From NCBI GenBank assembly GCA_963822945.1, contig CAWGJO010000024.1, forward strand, positions 64,001 to 128,000: DNA of 64,000 bases, given 5' to 3'. This DNA is from an uncultured Gemmatimonadaceae bacterium. GTDB taxonomy: Bacteria > Gemmatimonadota > Gemmatimonadetes > Gemmatimonadales > Gemmatimonadaceae. A model generated the notes under the pieces. The model saw only the letters and a list, made by a program, of their open reading frames with translations. It had not been told where the DNA came from and did not search any database. A program made the position numbers and the translations under genes. This document shows positions 47,771-64,000 of the stretch, in pieces (position 1 is the first letter of the stretch; each line of letters opens with the position of its first letter).

Positions 47771-48394
47771 TCATCGGTGGCATGCCGTGCAGTCCGTGGG
47801 GCCGCGCAGCGCCGACGAATCCGGCGGCAGATACGGGCCCGGATTCCGGTGGCAGTCCAGGCACTTGCCCATGCGCATGTTCATCACGCGGGACACCACG
47901 TCCATCGTCTGGACGGCCCCGTGGCACGTCTGGCACTCGATGCCGACGTTCACGTGCGACCGGTGATCGAAGTACACGTGATCGGGAAGGTGATAGACCC
48001 GCTTCCACGTCATCGCGGTATCCGTGGCCAATCGCGCCACGACTTGTGTGTTGATATAGGTGCTGTCGGCCATGGTGATGAACCGGTGACAGTTCATGCA
48101 CGTCTGGACAGCGGGGATGGTGGCGTGCCGGCTGCGGTCCGCATTCGTGTGGCAGTACTCGCAGGGAATGCGGTTCAGCCCCGAGTGCACGCGGTGGGAG
48201 AATGGGATGGGTTGCACCGGCGCGTAGCCAAGGGCAAACCGCGCGGGCTCGGCGGCCCAGCCGACGACCAGCATCGTCGCGATGGCCAGCACCGCTCCCA
48301 ATGGAAACACGACACGCCAGAAACGATCACGCGGATGCACCCGCAGCCCCCGAAGCAAAGCGTCAGCCAATCGCTCCACCATTGACTGCGTCAT
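47771..48394 (-). CDS. actA: Alternative complex III subunit A (pentahaem cytochrome c)
   Basis: TM helix, QPIPFSH, five CxxCH (CEYCH, CMNCH, CQTCH, CLDCH, CTACH). Confidence 0.92.
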   Translation of the reverse strand: MTQSMVERLADALLRGLRVHPRDRFWRVVFPLGAVLAIATMLVVGWAAEPARFALGYAPVQPIPFSHRVHSGLNRIPCEYCHTNADRSRHATIPAVQTCMNCHRFITMADSTYINTQVVARLATDTAMTWKRVYHLPDHVYFDHRSHVNVGIECQTCHGAVQTMDVVSRVMNMRMGKCLDCHRNPGPYLPPDSSALRGPTDCTACHR

Positions 48395-48470
48395 TGCGAG
48401 GCCTCTGAGGAGGGAAACGGGTGGGGGGGCCGCCCGTGCAATGTCGCGAGCCAATTGATTGACACGTCAT

Positions 48471-48704: not shown

Positions 48705-49061
48705 TCAGTCTACCGGCTCGGCGTGGTCGAGGCGCCAACGGGCCGGTGTGCCGCATTCGGTGCACGCGGCGTGTCCGTCGCCGTACAACACCAGGTCGGT
48801 CTCGCGATCGCAGGCCGGACAGGTCGCCCGCACGGTACGGAGTCCGTCCACCGGCAGCCCGTTGCGCACGATCCGCGCGACCATCGCATCGGGGCCCACG
48901 GCCCCGAGCGGGCAGAGGGCCCCGGTGCACTGGTCGCCCACCTCGAGACACACGACCTCGGAATCCAGCAGCGTCGCCTGCCCGTCGTGCTCCGGCGCGT
49001 CGGTGATGACGAGATTCACTTCGCGCTCGCAGGCGTTGCAGAACAGCCGGTGGCTCTTCAT
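48705..49061 (-). CDS. Cys-rich hypothetical metal-binding protein
   Basis: GAGGAGGG SD; CNAC, C-x6-C-x4-C, CPAC, CTEC; last gene of the rnf operon. Confidence 0.7.
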   Translation of the reverse strand: MKSHRLFCNACEREVNLVITDAPEHDGQATLLDSEVVCLEVGDQCTGALCPLGAVGPDAMVARIVRNGLPVDGLRTVRATCPACDRETDLVLYGDGHAACTECGTPARWRLDHAEPVD

Positions 49062-49071
49062 ACCGCCCTCC

Positions 49072-50067
49072 TCAGGTCAACGGAATCGCTTCGGCTCCAG
49101 GGATCATGCGGCGGGCCAACGTGGTGGCGGCGGCGTGCGACAACCCGAACCCGGAGGTCGACGCCGCGTCGGCGTCGATGGCCCGGTCGCCGAGAATGGT
49201 GAGACTGTGGATCGGCGTCAGGCGCGGCGCCGCGGTGACGGGGTCCATCAGGTGGTGATACCGATGGCCGCGCCAGCGGAAGAAGCGCTCGTAGTCGCCC
49301 GAGGTCGTCACGGCGCGGTCCGCCACGTCGAGGGTCGCCGACAGTGCCGAGAGGTCGCGTGGATTGCGGATGCCCACCTTCCACGGCTCGCCCTCCGGCG
49401 AATGGCCGAGCGCGTACAGATCGCCACCAACGGTGACGATGGCATGCGCGATCCCGCGATCGCGCAGGGCGGCGGTGGCGCGATCGATGCCGTAGCCCTT
49501 GGCGATCGCTCCCAGGTCGAGATGGATGTCGCGGTCGTCGTAGCGCAACGCCGGCGCGCCATGGAAGGTCGCGAGGTCCACCTTGCGCCAGAATCCGCGA
49601 TTGGCGAGCCGCTTGACCTGCGTGGCCGGCGGCGGTTCGTGGCGGTGCAGCACGTCCCAGAGTTCCGACACCTCGCCCGCCGCCGGATCGAACCGGCCGT
49701 CGCTGGCCGACGCCCAATCGAGGGCCCGCCGCACGACGAGCGCCGTCTCCGGTCGGATGGTGACGCCTTCACGGGCCGCGCCGAGGTTGGCCCGCCCGAT
49801 GTCGGAGGTCGCGGTGAACCGGGTCATCGTGCGCTCGACCCATCGCAGCTCGGCGATCGCCGCGTCGATGGCGGCTTCGGCGCGGTGCACGTCGCCGTGG
49901 GCGACCTGGATCTCGGCGATGGTGCCCATCACCGGAATGGTCCGCTTGGTGGTTGCGATGCGGCGCCGGAAGGCGATGGGCAGCGAGAGCCCGACGAACA
50001 TACCGGTGCCGATGGTCAGGAATTCGCGCCGACCCAGCTTCGAGCGCGACTCGGGGTCAAGAGGCAT
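49072..50067 (-). CDS. apbE: FAD:protein FMN transferase with Tat signal
   Basis: GRREFL, VMGT, DLGAIAKGY, GGD, TTSGDYE, YHHLMDP, ADAAST. Confidence 0.93.
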   Translation of the reverse strand: MPLDPESRSKLGRREFLTIGTGMFVGLSLPIAFRRRIATTKRTIPVMGTIAEIQVAHGDVHRAEAAIDAAIAELRWVERTMTRFTATSDIGRANLGAAREGVTIRPETALVVRRALDWASASDGRFDPAAGEVSELWDVLHRHEPPPATQVKRLANRGFWRKVDLATFHGAPALRYDDRDIHLDLGAIAKGYGIDRATAALRDRGIAHAIVTVGGDLYALGHSPEGEPWKVGIRNPRDLSALSATLDVADRAVTTSGDYERFFRWRGHRYHHLMDPVTAAPRLTPIHSLTILGDRAIDADAASTSGFGLSHAAATTLARRMIPGAEAIPLT

Positions 50068-50206
50068 GATGATCTCCTTCGTTCCAGCGCTCGCACGAGC
50101 CGCCGGTACAACCTGTGCAGTGGCCGGTGCAGCTGCGATGCGGAACCAGGCCGTAGAGGGCGAACAGGGCCGCCCCGATCACGATGGCGATGATGGTCCC
50201 TGTCAT
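50057..50206 (-). CDS. 49-aa single-TM, four-Cys protein (NqrM-like or FeoB-associated-like)
   Basis: MTGTIIAIVIGAALFALYGLVPHRSCTGHCTGCTGGSCER; ATGA overlap with rnfA stop and overlap with apbE start. Confidence 0.7.
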   Translation of the reverse strand: MTGTIIAIVIGAALFALYGLVPHRSCTGHCTGCTGGSCERWNEGDHHAS

Positions 50207-52159: not shown

Positions 52160-53160
52160 GACGCGGTCCTCGCGGCGGTACCGAACACTCTCGGCTGCGT
52201 GGCGCGGTTGATGAACGGCACCAGCGCGTTCATGAACAGGATGGCGTACATCACGCCCTCCGGCAGCCCGCCCCAGACGCGAATCACGACCACCAGAATG
52301 CCGATGCCGGCTCCGAACACCCAGCGCCCCAGGTTGGTGACCGGCGAGGTGACCATGTCGGTGGCCATGTACACGGCGCCGAGCATGAGACCGCCCGAGA
52401 ACACCATGAACATCGCCCCCGGCCATTGCGGCCTGATGGCGTGCAGAATCGCGCTGAACACCGCCACCGTGAGGATGATGCTCACGGGAATCCGCCAGTT
52501 GAGATAGTTGCGCACGGCCAGGTACGCGCCGCACGCCAGGATCACGAGCGCCGCCGTCTCGCCCACCGACCCGCCGGTGGTGCCGAGGATCAGGTGCATG
52601 AGCGAGGTGCCCTTCCCCTCGAACTTCAGCAGTCCGAGCGGCGTCGCCGACGTCACAGCGTTGACCGCGGGATGGAGGAAGGGCGCGACGAAGAGATCGC
52701 CCTTGAGCGTGAAGAAGCCGCCACCCGCCGTGGGCCAGGTGGTGATGGCCACCGGGAAGGCCCCCTGCAGGAAGGCGCGGCCCACCAGCGCCGGATTGAA
52801 GACGTTCTGTCCGAGCCCGCCCCACACCGCCTTCCCGAATCCGATGCCGAACGCGCCGCCGACGAACACCATCCAGAGGGGCATTCCGGCGGGGAGCGTG
52901 AGCCCGAGCAGCAGACCCGTGATCGCGGCCGATCCATCGGCCAGCGACCCGCCCTTGCCGAACGCGCGTTCCGCCGCCACCGATCCGAGCACCGCCGCGG
53001 CGATGACGAGCAGCGCGCTGATGCCGAAGAACCACGCCGACGCTGCAATCACGGGAACCAGGCTGCCGACCACGTTCCACATGATGCGCGGGGTCGAGTC
53101 CGCGGGCTTGAGGTGCGGCGACGCGGTGACGATCAGCCGCGGGACGGTCGGGGCGCTCAT
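52156..53160 (-). CDS. rnfD: Rnf complex subunit D
   Basis: SPH, DGSAAITGLLL, GGLGQNVFNPAL, TSATPL, GET, MATDMVTSP. Confidence 0.94.
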   Translation of the reverse strand: MSAPTVPRLIVTASPHLKPADSTPRIMWNVVGSLVPVIAASAWFFGISALLVIAAAVLGSVAAERAFGKGGSLADGSAAITGLLLGLTLPAGMPLWMVFVGGAFGIGFGKAVWGGLGQNVFNPALVGRAFLQGAFPVAITTWPTAGGGFFTLKGDLFVAPFLHPAVNAVTSATPLGLLKFEGKGTSLMHLILGTTGGSVGETAALVILACGAYLAVRNYLNWRIPVSIILTVAVFSAILHAIRPQWPGAMFMVFSGGLMLGAVYMATDMVTSPVTNLGRWVFGAGIGILVVVIRVWGGLPEGVMYAILFMNALVPFINRATQPRVFGTAARTAS

Positions 53161-54491
53161 TGGAGGGTCGCGAGTTGGCGCCGGAGCGCGGCCTTGCTCG
53201 CCTGGAAGAGCTGGGCGAGCGGAATGTTCGACGGACAGACGTAGGCGCAGGAGCCGCACAGCATGCAGTCGGACAGGTGCATGGCCGCCATGTCCTCGTA
53301 ACGCCGAACCTGCGCCAGCTCACCGAGCGTCGACGGGTTCAGGAACACGGGGCATGCTTCGAGGCAGCGTCCGCAGTGGATGCAGGCCCAGCTCTGCTCG
53401 TTGCGCGTCTCGTCGCGCGCGAGCACCACGACGCCCGTGGTGCCCTTCACCACCGGCGCGTCGAGATTCGCCTGGGCCTGCCCCATCATCGGCCCGCCGA
53501 TGATCACCTCGGCCGCGTCGGCCGTCACGCCGTCGCAGAAGGCCAGCAGATCGCGCAGCTTGGTGCCGACGGGAACGATCAGATTCGCGGGGCGACGCAG
53601 CCCGTGACCGGAGACGGTCACGATCCGTTCCACCAGCGGCAGGCCGGTCTCGAAGACCTCGGCAATGGCGGCCACCGACCCGACGTTCTGCACCACCACG
53701 CCCACCGTCACCGGCAGCTTGCCCGACGGCACCTCGAAGCCGGTCACGGCCTTGATCAGCATCTTCTCGGCGCCCTGCGGGTACTTGACGGTAAGCGGCA
53801 GGATCTCGACGTCCAGGTCGGCGGGCACGGCCGCGAGCATCGCGGCCACGGCGTCCGGCTTGTTGCGTTCGATGCCGACCACGCACTTGGTGACGCCGAG
53901 CGAGCGCATCATCACGCGGATGCCGAACATGACCCGGGGCGCGTATTCGACCATGGTCCGGTGGTCGGACGTCAGGTAGGGCTCGCATTCGGCGCCGTTG
54001 ATGATCAGCGTGTGAACGGTGGCGTCCTTGGGCGGCGCCAGCTTCACGTGCGTGGGAAATGCCGCGCCGCCCAGCCCCACCACGCCGGCGCTCTGAACGG
54101 CACGGACCACCTCGTCGGTGGAGAGCCCTTCCCAGCGCGGAACCATGCGCGGCCGCGGGATGTGCGGAGCGTACCGGTCCACCTTGATCCGCACGGCCTC
54201 GGCCATGGAACCGTCGGGGTGCGGCCACCATCCGATGTCCACCACCGTCCCGGCGGCCGAGGCATGAATGGGCACCGACATGAACCCGTCGGCCTGGCCC
54301 ACCGGATCGCCGCGTTCCACATGATCGCCCACCTTGACGCACAGCGTGGCGGGCTTGCCCGCATGCTGCCGCAGCGGGAGTACCACCTCGTCGGGGTACG
54401 GCATGCGGCGAATGGGCAGTTGATTGGTGAGCCCCTTCTCTTCCGGCGGGTGAACGCCGTGCCGGAATCCCAGCGAAATCGCCATCGTCAA
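53157..54491 (-). CDS. rnfC: Rnf complex subunit C
   Basis: GVHP, GLGGAAFPTHVK, NGAECEPYLT, YPQGAEK, GGPMMG, CIHCGRC, CMLCGSC. Confidence 0.95.
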   Translation of the reverse strand: MTMAISLGFRHGVHPPEEKGLTNQLPIRRMPYPDEVVLPLRQHAGKPATLCVKVGDHVERGDPVGQADGFMSVPIHASAAGTVVDIGWWPHPDGSMAEAVRIKVDRYAPHIPRPRMVPRWEGLSTDEVVRAVQSAGVVGLGGAAFPTHVKLAPPKDATVHTLIINGAECEPYLTSDHRTMVEYAPRVMFGIRVMMRSLGVTKCVVGIERNKPDAVAAMLAAVPADLDVEILPLTVKYPQGAEKMLIKAVTGFEVPSGKLPVTVGVVVQNVGSVAAIAEVFETGLPLVERIVTVSGHGLRRPANLIVPVGTKLRDLLAFCDGVTADAAEVIIGGPMMGQAQANLDAPVVKGTTGVVVLARDETRNEQSWACIHCGRCLEACPVFLNPSTLGELAQVRRYEDMAAMHLSDCMLCGSCAYVCPSNIPLAQLFQASKAALRRQLATLQ

Positions 54492-54492
54492 C

Positions 54493-57400
54493 TCAGTTGA
54501 ACTTCGCGCCGCGCTTCACCCATTTCTCCAGATCCTTCTCCTTGGGGTTGAGCGGCGTGCCGGGGTGGATGATCGACACCGGGCAGCGCTCGGCCGCAGT
54601 GACGAGTTGCTGATACGTGCCGGCACTCGCGTCCTTCACGTAGGCCTGCTTGTCCGCGTTGTACGCGAACATGCGCTTGTTGAGATTGGTGCATTCGTTG
54701 CAGGTCGTGCAGCGCACCGAGTCGATGTAGGCTTCGAGCGCCAGTTCCCCGTCGTCGTCGTCTTCCACGGCCACGGTGGCCGTACCCGCCGCCACCGGCG
54801 CCGTGGGGGCCGAGGCCGTGGCGGGTTCCGCCGCGGGAGCGGGCGCAGGCGGCGGCGGTGCGGCGTCGACCGGCGCGGGGGCCGCAGCGACCGCGCTCCC
54901 CGCTCCGTTGCCGTTGCTCACCACCGCCGGCAGCGACGCCAGCAGTTCGCCGATTGCCGACCCGCCGCCGTGCCGCATCAGCCCTTCGGCCAGGCGGCGG
55001 GCGATCTGCGGCGGATAGCTGGCTTTGAGTTCGTCGATCCTGGCCTCGTATTCGGCGCGTACCGCCGACAGCCTCTGTTCGAACTCGGCGGCCAACGCAT
55101 CGGCCACCGCGTCGTGCACGGTCTGCGGGATCTCGAGACCGGCCAACTGCTTCAGCTGCGACCAGAAGTGCAGCCGCTCCTCGGCCAGGATCACCATCTC
55201 GGCGGAGACGCCGAGGCGGCGGAGCGTCCGGTCCTTGGCGACGGCCAGGATGTACGGCGTGTGGCCGTCGCGCTCCTCCACCGGGAGGGCGACGAATTCC
55301 GCAAACGGCAGCATGTCGTCGGTCCATGCGTCCGGCGGGAGTTCGGTGAAGTGCTGCTTGAACCGCGTCTCGGTGGCGGCCCAGTCGGCGATCGTGAGCG
55401 GCAGGTCGAGCGTCTGCTCCGCGCCCTCGTCGTCGAGGTACTTCATGGTGTAGGTCGGCCACGTCTCGTCGATGGACGGATTGCCGTCGAGCGTCAGGCA
55501 GTCGGCGAATGCGCCGCCGGCGTCCGGATCGTAGGTCAGGAACGGGAAGGCGCGGCTCTCCAGCGCCAGCCGCGCCGCCTGCTGCGACCAGTCGTCGGCG
55601 AGGCCGTGCTCCACGGGGCACGGCGTGTAGATATTGAACACCGCGGGCCGGCGCTTGTGCAGTCCCTTGAGCACGCCCGCCACGAGATGCGACGCCGAAG
55701 CCTGCGACGACTGGTGCACGTACGCGCCGCGATGGGCGATGGCGAGGAGCGCCAATTCCTTGCGCACTTCGCTCTTGCCGTGCTGCGCCTTGCCGTACGC
55801 CGTCATGTCGGCCACCTGCCCGGTGTAGCCCGAGGTGCAGGCCTGGCCGCCGGTGTTCGAATACACCTGCGTGTCGAGCACCACCACCTTGATCGGCTTC
55901 CCGGAGGCGAGCAGCCGAGAGAGGTTCTGGAATCCGATGTCGAGCATCGCGCCGTCGCCGCCCATCGCGAGGATCGGCGGGCAGAGGGCGAATTCGTCAT
56001 CGGTGAACTGCTTCCACGTGAGCGACCGCAGCGCGGGTTCGTGCGCCGCCGCGTCGTACGTGCCGCCGGCGAGCAGCTCGGCGCGCCGCACCGCGGCCGT
56101 GTCGTCGGCCATCTTGCGCATCTGCGCTTCGAACACGCCGATCGCGATCGACGGCGCGTCCTGGAACAGGTGGTTGGCCCACGGGAACGGATACGGATTG
56201 TACGGCCAGGTGCTCGCCCACACCGACGAGCAGCCGGTGCTGTTGGCCATGCCCATGCGGCGCACGCCCCTCGCCGCTCGGCCCCTCGACATAACGCCAC
56301 CTGAGATCGCGCAACGCGTGGAGCGAGTCGTTGATCCGGGCCAGCCGCTCGTGCTTGGCGGCGTCCACCGGCACGCTCACCGCGGCACCCGCCTTGGCGG
56401 CCGCATCGAGATCGGCCCCCGAGGCGAGCAGCTCGCGCGCCTGCGCGTCGAGGGTCTCGATGAGTCCGTCGAGCTTGGCCACCTGCGCGGCCACGCGCGG
56501 CTGCATGGACGCGTGGATGGAGGAGACGATCAGATGGACGGCCGTCTTCTCCCCGCACCCCATGCAGGCCCCGTCGCCGCCCACCATCGAGCGGTAGTTC
56601 TGCTTCCGCAGGAGCAGCGACGACAGCACCCCGATCCCCTCGTCCACGTCCGAGACGTTGACGAACCGGTCGGCGGTATCGGGCAGTTGCTCCCACAGCG
56701 TCCAGTTCCTGCGCAGCCGTTCGAGCGCCGGCTCGTCCTGCTTGATCGTCACCAGCGCGCCGTCGGGACAGGCCGCGACACAGAGGTTGCAGCCCTTGCA
56801 CGCTTCCGGATTGACGGTGATCGAGAGCAGCCCGCCGCCGCCCTTTTCCCGCGCTTCGACGGCGTCGAAGAACGGCTTGGTGCGCGCCAGCGGGAACGCT
56901 GCCAGGCGCTCCTGGATGATCGCGAACTCGCGGTCGGTCTCGGCGCGGCGGTCGGGCTCCCAGCCCATCTTGTCGGCCACCGTCGTGTAGCCGGCGGCGA
57001 ACGCCGCGGGCACGGAAAGCGATGCGTCCTTGGTGAGTTGCCGGTGCGTCTCGCGTGCCCAGTGCTTCGTGATCGGGCGCAACCGGTCGAACGTCACGCC
57101 GTTGCTCGACACGTCCATGGCCGTGGACAGCAGGTCCTCCTCGCTGTTCACGAGACCGGGGATGGCCGAGTCGGGGCACTGCGTCCAGCACTGGGCGCAC
57201 CCGGTGCACTTCTCGGCGACGAACTCCGGGACTTCCAGGCGCACACCGCTCATGTCGCGCACGGCGCCCGTGGCGGCCGGCATCGCGCTGATCGCGGCGA
57301 ACGGATCGGCAATCCCGTCCTGGCCCAGGGCGCACAGCGTGCACACCTGCTCCCAGAACCGGCCCGGGTTGCCGACGCCCTGCTCGGCCGCCGGCACGTC

Positions 57401-59572
57401 GAGCAGCGACGGAATGTGCGGCACCGTGCCGGCCTCTTCGTGCGTCTCGATCTCGACCGCCTTCACGGGCAGCACCTGATCGAAGCCGCGGCGGATCACG
57501 CGGAGGTTGTCCTCCACCACGGTCGCGCCGCGGTGGCCGAACTTCTTCTGGAACTGCTTGCGGACGCCCTCGAATACCTTCGCTTCGGACGACCCCTCGG
57601 CCGCGATCAGGCTCGACGTGCGGAAGAAGGCACCGAGGAACGCCGCCCCCTGCATGCGATACCGCATCTCGACGTCGGAGGCCTCTTCGCGCGCGATCGC
57701 GAAGGCATCGAGCACGAACAGTTTGATGTGCCGCTCGATGATCGACGACCGGACGCGCGTGGGCAGCGTGCCCCAGAACTCGTCGGGCGGGAGGTCGCTC
57801 TGGATCACGAACACGCCGCCGTCGGCCAATCCGGCCAGCGGATCGCTGTGGCGGAACACGTTCGGGTCGGGCGACAGCACCACGTCCACGTGCTTGAGTT
57901 CGCAGTTGAGCAGAATGGGGTCGTGGGCCAGCACGGCGTAGAACGTGGTGGGCTGCCCCTTCTTCTCCGAGCCGTATTTCGGGTTGGCCTTGATCTGAAG
58001 CCCGAACAACTCGAACGCCGTCATCGCCAGGTTCTTACCCATGGTGATGGCGCCCCACCCGCCCACGGAGTGAATGCGCACCGCGGTCGAGCCCTTGGGC
58101 AGCAGGTTGGGTACGGTCGCCGGCGCGAGCGCCATCTCTGCCAGGTGCGGGTACGCGTCGACCAGCTTCTCCTGCCAGATCTGGAGCTTGGGAATGCGCG
58201 TGCCTTCGCGTACGAACTCGACGCCCAGGTAGAACTGGCGCCGCTGGGCTCCCTCCGGCAGCATGTTGTTCACCGCCGCCACGAGGTCCCCGGGCTGCAG
58301 GTCGCGGCTTCCGAGACCGAAGCATCCGGAGTAGAAGTCGGGCACCTGCTCGGAGTGGAGCGCCGGAATGCCGGCGTGCGGCGCATGAGCGCCGTGCGCG
58401 CGCCCGTTCTCCACGGCCTTGGCCATGGCGGCGCGGATCTCGCGCAGCATCGGCGGATCCACGGCCAGGGGCTGGTCGAGCCGCTCCAGGACCACGACGC
58501 CGCGCTTGCCCGCCAGGAGGCCGGCCACGAGATCGGCCGGGAATGGACGGAACATCGTGAGATTGAGGACGCCGACCTTGAGACCGCGCGCCTCACGCAG
58601 ATAGTCGGCCACCGCCATCGCATTCGGAACGACGGAGCCCTGCCCCACGATCGCCCATTCGGCGTCGTCCAGCCGGTACCCGCTGGCCCGCGCGTAGCGG
58701 CGGCCGGTGAGCGCGGCGTATTCGTCGAACGCCTGGTCGGCGAGCGTCACGATATGGTCGAAGTAGAACGGGCGCTGGGCGGCCACGCCCTGGGCGTAGC
58801 TGTCCTGGTTCTGCACCACGCCGAGCATCGCCGGATAGTCCAGGTCGAACATTTCCGGAATGCGGCGCCGGATCTCGCCGAACACCATGCGTTGGGCCGG
58901 CGTGGGGGACTCGATGCGGTCCGACGGATCGCCGAGGTAGGCCTTGACCAGCGCCGGCTCGGGAATCCGCGCGCTCTCGATCACGTGGCTGGTGAGAAAG
59001 CCGTCCTGCGCGCAGATGCCCGGATTGAGCGACAGCTCGGCGATCCGGTGCGCGACGAGATTCAGGTCGGCCGCTTCCTGCACGTCCTTGGCGAACATCT
59101 GGAAGAAGCCGGTATCGTCCACGGCATGGTAGTCGTCGTGGCCGGCGTGCACGTTGAGCGCGTGCTTGGTCATCGCCCGCGCAGCGACGTTGAGCACGTA
59201 GGTCAGCCGCTTGCCGACCGCGGCGTACAACGACTCGTGCATGTAGGCGATGCCCTGCCCGCTCGAGAAGTTGGTGGCGCGGAGTCCGGACATCGACATT
59301 CCGGCCGTGACCGCCGCGGCCGCGTGTTCCCCTTCAGGCTCGAAGAACAGCAGGCGCCGGCCGTTCACGTTCTCCTTGCCCTCTGCCACCGCCGCCGCCC
59401 AGCCTTCCCCCATCTGCGTGGAGGGAGTGATCGGGTACGCGCCCGCCGCTTCGCCGGCCGCCGTTTCCATGGCCACCACCGCCGCGCTGCCATCCAGCGC
59501 GCGCGGGATGCCGGGGTACGGCGGCGAAGTCGTCTCGCCCGACGTGGGCTTGCCCTTGGTCCAGAGTTTCAT
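54493..59572 (-). CDS. Large (~1690 aa) pyruvate:ferredoxin oxidoreductase-like protein with C-terminal ferredoxin domain (one extra base near 56259)
   Basis: YPITP, VAAR, QDGFLTSH, CTGCAQCWTQCP/CKGCNLCVAACP, ACMGCGE, NSTGCSS, GGDG..YSNTGGQ, C-terminal CTTCNEC..CP. Confidence 0.9.
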
Positions 59573-60423
59573 GCTGCCTCGCTCCCGACGGTCTCCGGCA
59601 CGCGAGCGAACTGCGCACCGTTCAGCCAGACGATTGCGCCGGTCGGGCACCGCTCGATAGCGCGATGCTCGGCCTGCGTGATGCGTTCGTAGTCCACCAC
59701 CGCCACGCCGCTGTCGATGCTGATCAATCCTTCCGCGGCGTCCAGCACGCACTTCCCGCACGCCGTGCAGGCCACGCGGCACTGCTCCAGCGCGTCATCC
59801 CCGTTGATCAGGTTCCGGCACTGCACCAGCAGGTGCGCATCCAGCGGCAGGATCGTGAACAGCCCCTTGGGACAGGCGTCCACGCAGTCACCGCACGCGG
59901 TGCAACGGGCGAGGTCCACCACCGGCAGGCCCGTGTCGCTCATCTGAATGGCGTCGAAGGTGCACGACACCGCGCAGTCGGCGAGACCCAGGCATCCCCA
60001 GGCGCATCCCTTGGCGCCGCCGGCCACCGACGCGGCCGCGGCGCACGTGGGAAGCCCGCGGTACTCGGCCTGGCTCACGGCCACGTCGGTGCCGCCGGCG
60101 CAGAGCAACCGCGCCACGCGGCGCGAGGCGTTGCCCGCATCCACGCCGAGGAAGTCGGCGATCTGCTTGTGCACCGAGTCGCTGGCCACCGTGCACTCCG
60201 ATGGCGCGATCTTGCCGTCCACGGCGCCCTCGGCGAACGCCCGGCAGCCGGGATGCCCGCAGGCGCCGCAATTGGCGTTGGGGAGCATCTGCGAGACGAT
60301 CTCGATGCGGGGATCCTCCCACACCCAGAGTTGCTTGTTGGCGAGGGCGATGAAGACGCCGAACACCAATCCGACCCCACCCAGGACCATGATCGCATGG
60401 AGGGTCACCGTCAGCGCGCTCAC
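59569..60423 (-). CDS. rnfB: Rnf complex subunit B
   Basis: N-terminal TM, LPNANCGACGHPGC, CAWGCLGLADC, CTACGDCVDACP, CTACGKC. Confidence 0.92.
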   Translation of the reverse strand: MSALTVTLHAIMVLGGVGLVFGVFIALANKQLWVWEDPRIEIVSQMLPNANCGACGHPGCRAFAEGAVDGKIAPSECTVASDSVHKQIADFLGVDAGNASRRVARLLCAGGTDVAVSQAEYRGLPTCAAAASVAGGAKGCAWGCLGLADCAVSCTFDAIQMSDTGLPVVDLARCTACGDCVDACPKGLFTILPLDAHLLVQCRNLINGDDALEQCRVACTACGKCVLDAAEGLISIDSGVAVVDYERITQAEHRAIERCPTGAIVWLNGAQFARVPETVGSEAA

Positions 60424-60424
60424 G

Positions 60425-61429
60425 TTACGCCTTCCCCTGCAGGCCGGATTCGGTGAGCAGCCACGACGCGATGCGCTCGACCGCATCGGACGCCCCGACC
60501 GCCGGGGCGCCGGCGCCGGCCGGCGTGGGCACGGCGAACGGCGTGCGGGCGATGTCGGCCAGCAGCTTCAGGTCCTCGCCCATCTGAAAGGCGCTCAGCC
60601 CGCGGACGGCGCGCTTCGGCGCCTCCGGCAGGTGCTGCACGGTGAGCCGCTGCCAGGGTTCGCGTCCGGCGAGCGGATCGTGCATGAACGTCGCCGAGCC
60701 CTCGGGCATCATGGCGGCGATCGCCGGTCCATCGAAGGCCGCCGCCCGGTCGAGGCCGGATCCGTCGGTGGTCTGGAGCACGAAGGCGCCGGGCGTGATG
60801 CACCGCGCCAGCGGAGCCGGCGCGCTCGGTCCGCGCACCACGAGCACCAACTTCTCGCGCCCGTCGGCGAAGTCGGTCAGCGCGCCGGCGTGTACGTCCG
60901 CCCCGTCCACCTCGATCACCAACGGCGGGGCGAACCGCCGCTCGGTCTTCGTCCAGCGGTGGAACTCCACGGGGTCGAGGAGGCGGTCGTGGTCGGCGGC
61001 CACGTACCGGCCGCCGCGCGCCAACTCCGTCAGCATCACGGCGCCGAACGCCAGGCCCGCCGCGCTCAACGCCGCATCCACCACGCTCGCCAGCCGCCCA
61101 CCCGGCGGCACGTCGGCAACGAACAGGTCGTTGCCGCGCGCCGCCACGCCTCGAAGCACGTCGGCGGCGCGATGGAGGGCCGCCACCGCGGCATCGTCCA
61201 CGCGGCGGGCCTTCGGGAAGAGGGCAGCGAACGCGGCCGCGTCCACGCGTCCGTCGGCGAATTCGCCGAGTGCCGACCGTGCGCCGGCGGCCGCCACTTC
61301 GGTCGTGGCGGCCCGGGCCGCGAGAAAGTCCTCGGCCTGGGCCAGCGCGCCATCCACCAGCGTGCGAAATTCGGCAATCGGCTGCGCCAGCGCCGTGAGC
61401 GCCTGGGCCGTGCGGGGATCAGACGGCAT
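60425..61429 (-). CDS. Hypothetical protein: degenerate paralogue of the PFOR TPP-binding (beta) domain
   Basis: Collinear by-eye alignment to the downstream PFOR C-terminal region; no GDG..N motif, only one Cys. Confidence 0.75.
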   Translation of the reverse strand: MPSDPRTAQALTALAQPIAEFRTLVDGALAQAEDFLAARAATTEVAAAGARSALGEFADGRVDAAAFAALFPKARRVDDAAVAALHRAADVLRGVAARGNDLFVADVPPGGRLASVVDAALSAAGLAFGAVMLTELARGGRYVAADHDRLLDPVEFHRWTKTERRFAPPLVIEVDGADVHAGALTDFADGREKLVLVVRGPSAPAPLARCITPGAFVLQTTDGSGLDRAAAFDGPAIAAMMPEGSATFMHDPLAGREPWQRLTVQHLPEAPKRAVRGLSAFQMGEDLKLLADIARTPFAVPTPAGAGAPAVGASDAVERIASWLLTESGLQGKA

Positions 61430-62375
61430 AACGGTCGAGCTCCGCGTCGATGAGGGCCACCCGCTCCGCGGCCGTGCGCGGCGGTACGCGCCGCGTCTCC
61501 TCGTAGCGGGGTTTGGAATCGTCCCGGAAGAACACGCCGAGATTCACGCGGTCGGTGTCGCCGGCCATGCGCCGGGCAGCGTCGAGGTCGTGCACGTCGT
61601 GCCCCACCTGGTTCTGATAGAGCTTCGCCAACTCGGGCACTACGACGCCGTCGTCGTGCACGAGCATGTTGATGTTCGATGGATCCTGCACCGCCTTCAG
61701 ATAGATGGCGCTGGAGTAAATCGGGCAGCGCTGCAGGATGCGCACGAAGCTGAGTCCCCGATGCTGCCGCGCCGCGCGAAGTGTCGCGTACAGGTGGGCG
61801 GGCACCCACTCGGCCGTCTGGGCGACGAACGAGGCGTTGGTGACGCCGAGCGCCACCTGCAATGGGTTCAGCGCCGGAAGCCAGCTGCCACGCGGCTGCG
61901 TATTGCTGGGAAATCCCTGCGGCGTGGTGGGCGACGTCTGCTGCTTGGTGAGTCCGTAGATGCCGTTGTCCAGCAGCAGCACGGTCAGATCGAGATTGTA
62001 GCGCAGCGCGTGCACCCAGTGGCCGGCGCCGATCGAGGTGCAATCGCCGTCGCCCATCACCACGAAGATGTTGAGGTCGGGACGCTGCAGCCGGATGCCC
62101 GTGGCCACGGGCAGCGCGCGGCCGTGGATGCCGTGGAAGCCGTAGGTCTTCAGATAATGCGGGAACCGGCTCGAGCATCCGATGCCGGACACGAACACCG
62201 TGTTCTCCGGCGTCAGCTGCTCGGCGGCCAGCAGCCGCTCGACCGCCGTGAGGATCGAGTGGTCGCCGCAGCCGGGACACCAGCGGGCACGCGCCCCTTC
62301 GTAGTCGTTGATCTCGTACTCGTAGTCTTCCGCGTTCAGTTCGAGCACGGGAAGATGACAGTGGGTCATCGTCAT
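61419..62375 (-). CDS. korB: 2-oxoacid:ferredoxin oxidoreductase beta subunit (KorB-like)
   Basis: WCPGCGD, SGIGCS, HGIHGR, GDGD, DNGIYGLTK.Q.SPTT, QRCP. Confidence 0.92.
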   Translation of the reverse strand: MTMTHCHLPVLELNAEDYEYEINDYEGARARWCPGCGDHSILTAVERLLAAEQLTPENTVFVSGIGCSSRFPHYLKTYGFHGIHGRALPVATGIRLQRPDLNIFVVMGDGDCTSIGAGHWVHALRYNLDLTVLLLDNGIYGLTKQQTSPTTPQGFPSNTQPRGSWLPALNPLQVALGVTNASFVAQTAEWVPAHLYATLRAARQHRGLSFVRILQRCPIYSSAIYLKAVQDPSNINMLVHDDGVVVPELAKLYQNQVGHDVHDLDAARRMAGDTDRVNLGVFFRDDSKPRYEETRRVPPRTAAERVALIDAELDRYAV

Positions 62376-64000
62376 GAGGCGCGTCCTCCGCGCGGCATGT
62401 GGCCGCGGATGGCGTCGGCGATCGCGCCGGGACGCAGTGGCTCGCCCGGTACGCGTGTCCAGCAGTCGACGTCCACGAGCGTCGCGTTGCGCAGCAGGAT
62501 GCTGAGCTGCCCGCGCCGCCGGTTCTCTTCGGTGATGTACGGATCGCCGGGTTCGTCGCTGTAGTTGATCTCCACCGTCATCACCTTCTTGAAGCGGCGG
62601 AAGATGTCGCGGAGCCCCGGTTCGAGCGGGGAGAGGAATCGCAGGTGCAGCGACGAGACCTTGAGGCCTTCGGCGCGCGCGCGATCCACGGCTTCCTCGA
62701 TCGCACCCTTCGTGCTCCCCCAGCCGACGATGAGCAGGTCGCCCTTCGCATCGCCGTACACCGCCGGCGGCTGCAGCAGGCTCTGCAGTACGGCGAGCTT
62801 GCGGCTCCGCATCGACGACGAACGTTGATGCACGCCCGAGCTGTACGCCACCTTGCTGCCCTCGTCGTGCGAGAGCCCGGTGACGGTGTGCATGCCGCCG
62901 GCCTGGCCGGGCACCACCCGGGTGGAGAGCCCCGTCTCCGGATTCCACTGGTAGGGTTTGTGTCCGTCGGGCACCGGGCTCAGGTCCACCGGTTCGGCGA
63001 ACCAGCGCTCGTCGGGCTTGGGCCGTTTGAACGGCGTCACGCCCGTGGCCAGGTTGGCATCGGAGAGGACCATCACCACCGCGCGGAACGTCTCGGCAAT
63101 GCGGCGCGCCGTGATCATCACGTGGAAGCACTCCTCGATCGTCGCCGGCGCGATGATGACGTGCGGAGCGTCGCCCGTCTGGCCGTAGAGCGCGGCCAGC
63201 AGATCCGACTGTTCGACCTTGGTCGGCAGTCCCGTGCTCGGCCCGCCGCGCTGGACCTCGACCACCACCAGCGGCATCTCGGTCATGATCGCCAGGCCGA
63301 GAAATTCCGTCTTGAGCGCGAGTCCCGGCCCCGACGTGATCGTGAAGGCGACCTTGCCCGAATACGACGCGCCGATGGCGACGCCGGCGGCGGCAATCTC
63401 GTCCTCGGCCTGATGCACGATCCCGCCGAAGCGCTCGAACACCTCGCTCAGGTAGTGCGACACCGACGTCGCCGGCGTGATCGGATACATCGCGCACATC
63501 TCCATGCCGGCGGCAATCGCGCCGAGGCCGATCGCCTCGTTGCCGTTCATCACGACGAGCGCGTCATCCGACGGCGCGGGGGCGACCTCGATCCGCAGAT
63601 CGAGATGCTCCTCGGCCCAGGCGTATCCGAGTTTCAGGAGGGCGACGTTCTTTTCGTAGACCTCCTCGCTTTTCTTGCGGAAGGTGTAGGCGATCTGGTC
63701 GCGGATGCGGTCCATGTCGCGATCGTAGACGTACGCCAACAGCCCGAGCGCGAACATGTTCTTGCCCTTGCGTGGATTGTCCACCACGGTCAGGCACTGC
63801 TCCTCCATCGGGACGGGGATGATCCGGTAGTCGCGCGTGGACAACTCCTTCATGGCCTGTTCCCACGCCGCCCGGATCTCCGGGTCCTCGTCGGTCGCCC
63901 ACTTGTTCTCCACCAGCAGCACGGCATCCGGGGCGAGCGCGTCGAGGCGATGCCGGGCCAGCAGCACCTGCTCGTTGAACGCCACGGCGAGTTGCGTCGC
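62372..64000 (-). CDS. korA: 2-oxoacid:ferredoxin oxidoreductase alpha subunit (KorA-like), 5' end outside window
   Basis: GNEAI, YPITPAT, QAEDEIAA, TSGPGL.LK, QRGGPSTGLPT, GWGST. Confidence 0.92.
   Translation of the reverse strand, partial: ATQLAVAFNEQVLLARHRLDALAPDAVLLVENKWATDEDPEIRAAWEQAMKELSTRDYRIIPVPMEEQCLTVVDNPRKGKNMFALGLLAYVYDRDMDRIRDQIAYTFRKKSEEVYEKNVALLKLGYAWAEEHLDLRIEVAPAPSDDALVVMNGNEAIGLGAIAAGMEMCAMYPITPATSVSHYLSEVFERFGGIVHQAEDEIAAAGVAIGASYSGKVAFTITSGPGLALKTEFLGLAIMTEMPLVVVEVQRGGPSTGLPTKVEQSDLLAALYGQTGDAPHVIIAPATIEECFHVMITARRIAETFRAVVMVLSDANLATGVTPFKRPKPDERWFAEPVDLSPVPDGHKPYQWNPETGLSTRVVPGQAGGMHTVTGLSHDEGSKVAYSSGVHQRSSSMRSRKLAVLQSLLQPPAVYGDAKGDLLIVGWGSTKGAIEEAVDRARAEGLKVSSLHLRFLSPLEPGLRDIFRRFKKVMTVEINYSDEPGDPYITEENRRRGQLSILLRNATLVDVDCWTRVPGEPLRPGAIADAIRGHMPRGGRAS

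Follow-up and report, generated by a model that had tools for sequence, protein, structure and literature searches.

A cofactor-less relative of PFOR domain VI encoded between korAB and rnfB in an uncultured Gemmatimonadaceae bacterium and its possible role as an adaptor

PFOR and the two-subunit OFORs are the closest described systems to the protein considered here, which is encoded by a gene termed hyp in an operon for KorAB, a long PFOR, and the Rnf complex. In PFOR, domains I and II help to build the dimer interface, as does domain VI, and two-subunit OFORs are without domain V and possess a pocket into which an external ferredoxin fits, as described in PMC5020499. For the Riftia symbiont, PMC11636981 reports that a 'PFOR-like' gene and korAB both decrease under sulfide limitation. 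Passages of PMC6315080, PMC3368242, and PMC11267869 contain nothing on a protein of the hyp type. In the full-text literature searched, the scope of which excluded most subscription journals, no description of a protein like hyp or of a pseudo-subunit of PFOR was found, and neither a pseudo-enzyme subunit derived from a 2-oxoacid:ferredoxin oxidoreductase nor an Rnf accessory subunit of this kind was encountered. To our knowledge, no such accessory pseudo-enzyme subunit is known for Rnf. The Allochromatium genes Alvin_0804-0807 were considered as a possible instance of this operon and rejected on look-up.

The window, i.e., the whole stretch of 64,000 nucleotides that was analysed, carries a tightly coupled operon with the gene order korA-korB-hyp-rnfB-PFOR-rnfC, followed by further rnf genes (Table 1), and its closest named loci are found in Gemmatimonadota MAGs. 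The stop codon of korB lies within the first four codons of hyp, the two genes overlapping by 11 nt, and the GTG start codon of rnfB follows 1 nt after the stop codon of hyp. This agrees with the earlier note, in which hyp had been described as an intact frame coupled to both neighbours. KorAB is without a ferredoxin domain of its own. The ORFs downstream of rnfC (rnfD-G-E-A and the apbE-like gene) were named by inspection. A membrane peptide of about 48 aa with a CxxxCxxCxxxxC tail is encoded between rnfA and the apbE-like gene (50057-50200), and a Cys-rich ORF of 118 aa follows the apbE-like gene (48705-49061); both are unannotated. An ORF for a multiheme cytochrome c with several CxxCH motifs lies downstream on the same strand (47771-48454), where another respiratory operon may begin. 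At two other loci, a second, divergent korAB pair (35-45% identity) is located just upstream of the operon (L025:994-2591 and L050:537-2671).

The PFOR gene of the window is divided into two frames by a one-base frameshift near position 56260 (56259-56261). The extra base is the only gap relative to locus L001 over 13.6 kb at 96% identity, and contigs from three of four public runs are without it, one of these contigs being a 213-base piece that is otherwise identical. Because the base is absent from L001 and from the contigs of three public runs, the frameshift is probably an assembly error, and the intact 1692-aa PFOR of the 96%-identical locus L001 was used for all PFOR comparisons. Contigs from RNA runs of relatives span the operon; such contigs cannot demonstrate transcription.

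Table 1. Positions of hyp, its segments, and the neighbouring genes in the window
Feature	Positions	Strand	Evidence
hyp, cofactor-less relative of PFOR domain VI, 334 aa	60425..61429	-	profile search, AlphaFold model, hhalign, dN/dS
hyp residues 53-70, conserved ELGxFAxGRIDxxRF motif, candidate docking site	61220..61273	-	alignment conservation
hyp residues 130-171, helical insert specific to the long-PFOR subfamily	60917..61042	-	strongest sequence match to PFOR
hyp residues 174-178, VDGAD, remnant of the GDG motif	60896..60910	-	hhalign and family alignment
hyp residues 193-220, strand, short Pro-rich linker, strand with invariant Gln219	60770..60853	-	alignment
hyp residues 247-268, FxHDP...RL hairpin, similar to YDP...CL of PFOR	60626..60691	-	hhalign/HMM alignment
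hyp residues 313-328, conserved C-terminal helix (LAxWLL) on a variable Ala/Pro linker	60446..60493	-	model and conservation
korA, 2-oxoacid:acceptor oxidoreductase alpha subunit; start beyond the window edge	62372..64000	-	TIGR03710, 494.5 bits (cutoff 482.75)
korB, beta subunit with its own cluster and GDG motifs	61419..62375	-	Pfam/NCBIfam
rnfB, membrane-anchored polyferredoxin	59569..60423	-	Pfam/NCBIfam
Long PFOR, all catalytic motifs, C-terminal tethered Fer4_13 ferredoxin; split by one extra base	54493..59572	-	Pfam and locus L001
rnfC, first of the downstream rnfC-D-G-E-A and apbE-like genes (to about 49072)	53157..54491	-	TIGR01945, 529 bits

hyp is remotely homologous to domain VI of the long PFOR encoded in the same operon, as had been claimed in the earlier note from an alignment by eye with the TPP domain of this PFOR. 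Profiles of 146 hyp-family sequences, from which the sequence P0178 had been removed, and of 133 long-PFOR domain-VI sequences were aligned by hhalign over 267 colinear columns (hyp 7-297) with a probability of 79.5 and an E-value of 1.5e-5. A second pair of alignments, likewise without P0178, gave a probability of 82.3 and an E-value of 1e-5 over hyp 119-271. The controls gave E-values of 0.066 for the reversed profile, 0.012 for the N-terminal half of PFOR, 0.35 for canonical PFOR domain VI (5 sequences), and 0.14 for another long PFOR type (3 sequences). With a hhalign probability of about 80%, the similarity is weak in absolute terms; shallower alignments gave a probability of 17%, and in global mode the comparison of hyp with PFOR domain VI was insignificant.

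Scans with the hyp profile point to the same partner. Among 20,029 six-frame segments of its own genome, the frame of the PFOR C-terminal part ranked second (E 0.0053; next match 0.74), and in 301 genomes of the phylum 13 of 16 second matches fell within a long PFOR, the other three being pieces of split hyp genes. The PFOR of this operon scored 13.5 bits against the HMM and KorB -2.6 bits. By BLASTP, the only notable match with the C-terminal part of PFOR was the first segment of the earlier note, a gapless stretch of 42 aa with 36% identity (pairwise E 0.002), which is by itself weak and near noise, and nothing was found with the N-terminal part. The hyp query matched no family in Pfam and NCBIfam at E<=1, including PF02775, TIGR02177, and TIGR02176, a PDB sequence search with both profiles returned no match, and the ESM Atlas gave no usable match (best 0.77). 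Segments 1-4 of the six that had been aligned by eye appear in the same register in the hhalign alignment. Segments 5 and 6 were not recovered by hhalign, but the matching helix order of the two AlphaFold models supports them, as do HMM alignments with P0178 and with a longer relative. The invariant Gln219 of hyp aligns with an invariant Gln of PFOR.

A hhalign match of 99.9% was rejected as evidence; it was caused by P0178, a single sequence that carries a coil and ferredoxin tail of the PFOR type. P0178 may be a deletion product or an assembly chimera, because its source is a single 3.7-kb contig and its tail is over its length closest to active PFORs, and it was given little weight. The KorB-hyp fusion P0395 was rejected as a Rosetta-stone fusion, since it is a sequencing artefact with an off-frame junction and a second off-frame stretch.

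The segments of domain VI that hold the cofactors are missing from hyp. The protein starts after the CxGC motif of domain VI, and the GCS cysteine segment (41 residues), the YSNTGGQ loop (35 residues), and the PCP cysteine loop fall into gaps of the hhalign alignment. A short Pro-rich linker stands in place of the YSNTGGQ loop, and the PCP loop is deleted together with the helix that precedes the FxHDP hairpin. All four cysteine ligands of the proximal [4Fe-4S] cluster (CxGC, GCS, PC) are absent, their segments lying outside the protein or in gaps, and a single cysteine (C210) remains in the 334 residues. Among 270 hyp-family sequences, none contains YSNT, FSNT, or NTGG, and CxxC occurs only once, in the tail of P0178; the motifs GGDG, YSNTGGQ, TGCS, and PCPxEH are kept in 120 of 120 long PFORs. 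VDGAD lies over GGDG in the alignment, with its DG paired with the DG of the motif. At this site, 62 of 145 hyp-family sequences have VDG, 83 have the Asp, and 139 have the second Gly, and the first Gly is not among the six commonest residues at the aligned position. The reading in the earlier note that GGDG is degraded to VDGAD, that the YSNTGGQ loop is absent, and that the cluster ligands are lost was thus borne out at each of these sites.

Since the thiamine-binding loop and the cluster cysteines are missing, hyp should bind neither TPP nor a [4Fe-4S] cluster, and residual binding of a metal or phosphate may be retained because the Asp of the motif persists in 83 of the 145 sequences. With these sites lost across the family, hyp does not qualify as a working domain VI and is classed, on sequence criteria, as a pseudo-enzyme. 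Homology to PFOR domain VI and loss of the sites, taken together, are very probable.

The AlphaFold model of hyp (pLDDT 93.3, pTM 0.85) contains the PP-domain alpha/beta fold of ThDP enzymes. Its top matches are domain VI of PFOR, beta chains of OFORs, and further ThDP enzymes, with scores that are moderate. In a Foldseek search among 350,542 chains, all 13 of the best rows listed were PFORs (E 0.003-0.04) and no match reached E 0.001; a model of a true domain VI, used as positive control, gave 1e-14. The top three matches among 48,161 representatives were 6CIN, a PFOR (Z 8.0, rmsd 4.6 over 165 residues, chain positions 807-1170), and two OFOR beta chains, and a second structural look returned seven PFOR entries with Z 7.5-8.1 over PFOR 806-1171. 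Residues 1-295 of the model align to PFOR 806-1170, i.e., domain VI. The structural matches had TM-scores of 0.23-0.27, best Z of 8.0-8.1, and rmsd of 4.6-7.6, with 165-196 aligned residues, a level that the tool grades as possibly a common arrangement. Helices and strands occur in the same order in the AlphaFold models of hyp and of PFOR domain VI. Profiles and predicted structures both have PFOR domain VI as the best match, as had been anticipated, with structural scores that stay moderate (Z about 8).

A profile search of 1.84 billion representatives yielded 497 clusters at 50% identity (E<=0.001), with lengths of mostly 320-370 aa among the 150 clusters listed. hyp occurs in 52 of 301 genomes of the phylum Gemmatimonadota, in 2 of 201 Acidobacteriota genomes, and in one gammaproteobacterial bin, the only carrier among 301 genomes of its class. 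Fifty-nine loci were tallied, 56 of them with hyp. Where the flank was long enough, korB is located directly upstream (53/53), rnfB downstream (55/55), and the PFOR next (51/51), so the linkage to this PFOR type is tight. In the phylum sample, 51 of 53 genomes with this long PFOR type also have hyp. One of the two exceptions is cut by a contig end; in the other, G136 (one contig), the PFOR lies outside any rnf or kor context, without hyp, and is without the C-terminal helix and the ferredoxin. This stand-alone PFOR (L041:7111-11580) has 1489 aa, belongs to the same subtype at 66% identity, and is also without the linker. L044, L066, and L067 encode long PFORs of another type (about 1580-1620 aa, 34-35% identity), in genomes without hyp or rnf neighbours. 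In two loci from Vicinamibacteria (L015:14789-16822 and L031:14776-16872), the PFORs keep GGDG and the cluster cysteines and have GHSDT in place of YSNT, with a deletion of 19 residues in L015; these operon PFORs are possibly on the way to losing or changing their activity.

dN/dS values of hyp against 8 related loci, calculated by a simple counting method on sequences of high GC, were 0.04-0.25, which indicates purifying selection rather than neutral drift; by the same method, korB had 0.04-0.11, PFOR domain VI 0.07-0.21, and rnfC up to 0.10. The best-kept parts besides the core are the 53-70 motif, for which conservation across 145 sequences reaches 80% or more in 8 of 18 columns, and the C-terminal helix with its variable linker; this helix corresponds to the one that precedes the ferredoxin tether in PFOR. 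Conservation is also high in the helix that follows the GDG site, and the polar residues R164, D178, D189, Q219, and H250 are near-invariant. The overlap with the korB stop is the simplest explanation for the conserved N-terminal MPSD, the count of which is not independent because 44 hyp starts (2 duplicates) were picked by a pattern demanding MPSD. Altogether, there is strong support for hyp as a folded protein under selection that derives from domain VI of the subfamily of long PFORs linked to Rnf.

Besides the type found in the window, with korAB, hyp, and an active PFOR with a tethered ferredoxin, two operon types were found via weak matches in Acidobacteriota and Gammaproteobacteria. Type A starts with rnfB, followed by an active long PFOR with the tether (G618, G669, G595, G573, G762, and G589 contig 124) and, in the 5 loci that extend far enough, by rnfC. 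In all six of these gammaproteobacterial loci, which cover 6 of 9 weakly matching gammaproteobacterial genomes, neither korAB nor a gene in the third position was found within 1.6-9.5 kb upstream, two of the six having under 2.5 kb upstream. An ORF resembling LysR-type regulators, named by inspection, is located upstream on the opposite strand in two of these loci (L093, L095, L097, L098, L099, and L101). Type B (n=4; L076, L078, L080, and L100) consists of korA-korB, a gene for a long dead PFOR-like protein that carries a tethered ferredoxin, rnfB, another dead PFOR that has no tether, and rnfC. The frames of its third-slot genes comprise 867 (G481), 1290 (G405), 1295 (G338), and 831 residues (G589 contig 44). 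The fifth-slot proteins keep CxxCxxC motifs of domain V, two in three loci and one in G481, and may serve as an electron wire. A third-slot gene was present with korAB and absent without it in the loci examined, and each operon examined has one tethered ferredoxin, either on the third-slot protein or on the PFOR, the latter being the case where hyp occurs. The distribution in these few independent lineages (6 and 4 loci) suggests that hyp tracks KorAB rather than the PFOR.

The third-slot proteins share the LGxF...ID motif and the operon position with hyp, and the 53-70 motif is common to these longer pseudo-PFORs and was not seen in active PFOR. Against the hyp profile they scored 28.7, 26.5, and 17.9 bits, and 29.7 bits in a separate run, values above the 13.5 bits of the PFOR of this operon. 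Because active gammaproteobacterial PFORs also reach 19-27 bits, the lineages are distinguished by the tree and not by the score alone. In a tree of 23 rows, hyp and the third-slot proteins were split from all fifth-slot proteins with a support of 98/97, a tree joining hyp with active PFORs was rejected (p-AU 0.0135), and the same split was obtained, with a support of 90, in a quick tree built from other rows. The tree is moderate evidence because its branches are long, and 4 of the 23 rows are of biased composition. Of the statement that hyp is a copy of the neighbouring PFOR, the relationship to its domain VI stands, while hyp would not be a recent copy of this neighbour: with moderate support, hyp appears to be a member of an old paralogous third-slot lineage. 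It would be the most reduced member, the longer ones (frames of 831-1295 residues) keeping the tethered ferredoxin.

Given that the third-slot protein co-occurs with korAB and that a single tethered ferredoxin is encoded per operon, a role of this protein in connecting KorAB to the module is the simplest reading. hyp may thus be an adaptor that brings KorAB to the tethered ferredoxin of the PFOR and to RnfB, a reading taken from the gene distribution to which we assign a probability of roughly 0.55. Of the options named in the earlier note, such a bridge of PFOR, KorAB, and RnfB fits the distribution best, and we infer every binding step in it. hyp would be made one-to-one with KorB, would hold KorAB, perhaps via the 53-70 motif, and would use its C-terminal helix and surfaces inherited from domain VI to dock on the PFOR. 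The conservation of the 53-70 motif and of this helix agrees with such a role. The swinging ferredoxin of the PFOR would then serve both KorAB and the PFOR and exchange electrons with RnfB in either direction. In type B, the third-slot protein itself would bring the ferredoxin to KorAB; in the window type, it would have shrunk to an adaptor that places KorAB next to the PFOR ferredoxin and RnfB. In the presumably heterotrophic Gemmatimonadota, the likely direction would be 2-oxoacid oxidation driving ion pumping by Rnf, with reverse flow being possible.

hyp could alternatively be a private subunit of KorAB, a pseudo-beta protein that replaces one KorB or caps the heterodimer and changes its oligomeric state or regulation while leaving the PFOR untouched. 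The PP-domain fold common to hyp and KorB, with OFOR beta chains among the structural matches, the 11-nt overlap with korB, the presence of hyp only where korAB is present, and the well-conserved helix after the GDG site are consistent with this. hyp retains, however, the long-PFOR inserts and the C-terminal helix, which are absent from KorB, the hyp profile scores KorB far below the PFOR (-2.6 versus 13.5 bits), and the access of KorAB to the sole tethered ferredoxin would be left unexplained, which makes this reading unlikely. A hyp that binds only transiently and acts outside the working electron-transfer complex, in assembly, as an oxygen shield, or in allosteric regulation, is improbable to the same degree. 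In the PFOR of D. africanus, domain VII has an oxygen-shielding role. This domain is an extra arm over the other subunit (PMC5020499), a precedent for such a role, with which the lack of cofactor sites and the faster evolution of hyp (dN/dS up to 0.25) compared to korB (0.11) and rnfC (0.10) are compatible; a chaperone or regulator would also fit the translational coupling to korB. However, the long PFOR also occurs without hyp, and the longer hyp orthologues carry a tethered ferredoxin, which suggests a permanent place in the electron path.

The proposal in the earlier note that hyp replaces one half of the PFOR homodimer, giving a PFOR-hyp heterodimer with one active site that would be independent of KorAB, is disfavoured and more doubtful than the two preceding readings, because, where korAB is absent, this PFOR type accompanies Rnf without hyp and because hyp has no domains I and II. 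The descent of hyp from domain VI, itself an interface domain of the dimer, its presence in 51 of the 53 phylum-sample genomes with this PFOR type, and the two dead PFOR paralogues that stand side by side in the four type B operons, as in a heterodimer, speak for it. Domains I and II are also interface domains according to PMC5020499, which describes the same for domain VI, active PFORs of the same type are without hyp in the 6 gammaproteobacterial rnf loci, as is the same-type PFOR of G136, and the coupling of hyp is to korB. It is very improbable that hyp has acquired, on the old fold, a new catalytic or ligand-binding function that needs no cofactor, for which the near-invariant R164, D178, D189, Q219, and H250 might speak, since R164, Q219, and the HDP motif match positions that are conserved in PFOR or in the dead paralogues, suggesting structural roles, and no family or solved-structure match names another activity.

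If the adaptor reading is true, low-potential electrons would be channelled from two enzymes of central metabolism to Rnf without a soluble ferredoxin, which would bear on low-oxygen energy conservation in uncultured soil and sediment bacteria. At somewhat less than even odds, the operon would specify a membrane-attached supercomplex that has not been described so far, with a PFOR-derived pseudo-enzyme holding together two 2-oxoacid:ferredoxin oxidoreductases that use a single tethered ferredoxin in common and deliver electrons straight to Rnf. The reduction series of about 1290, 850, and 334 residues would then reflect a PFOR duplicate that lost catalysis, then whole domains, and then the ferredoxin, with a docking role left. 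A large unannotated family (497 clusters) gains a testable role, and its longer relatives are similar enough to be annotated as PFOR or ferredoxin and can thereby mislead metabolic reconstructions.

Among known proteins, domain VI of the PFORs from Moorella thermoacetica (6CIN/6CIO/6CIQ) and Desulfovibrio africanus (1B0P/2C3Y/7PLM) provides the best structural matches of the hyp model, with strands and helices in the same order. In contrast to this domain, to which its identity is 8-14%, hyp is a stand-alone protein of 334 aa without the TPP loop, the cluster cysteines, and domains I-V, and it has the helical inserts of long PFORs, which canonical PFOR profiles do not match (E 0.35). The OFOR beta subunits (KorB/PorB; 9BT4 chain D, 8YS5 chain C, 5B48 chain B, and the oxalate oxidoreductase 5C4I) are free-standing domain-VI chains of about the size of hyp (Z 5.1-6.7). 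They bind TPP, Mg, and a [4Fe-4S] cluster, whereas hyp has no match to PF02775 or TIGR02177 and is encoded beside an intact korB. The long Rnf-linked PFOR (Fer4_13 tether, about 1650-1720 aa) and the dead third-slot paralogues (G481, G405, G338, and G589) have the inserts and the C-terminal helix in common with hyp, which compared to them is reduced to the domain-VI core with the ferredoxin tail gone. As for the Rnf complex (RnfABCDGE) fed by soluble ferredoxin, a complete rnf set with a long RnfB is likewise present in the operon of the window, which, in contrast, itself encodes the donor enzymes, a tethered ferredoxin, and the pseudo-enzyme.
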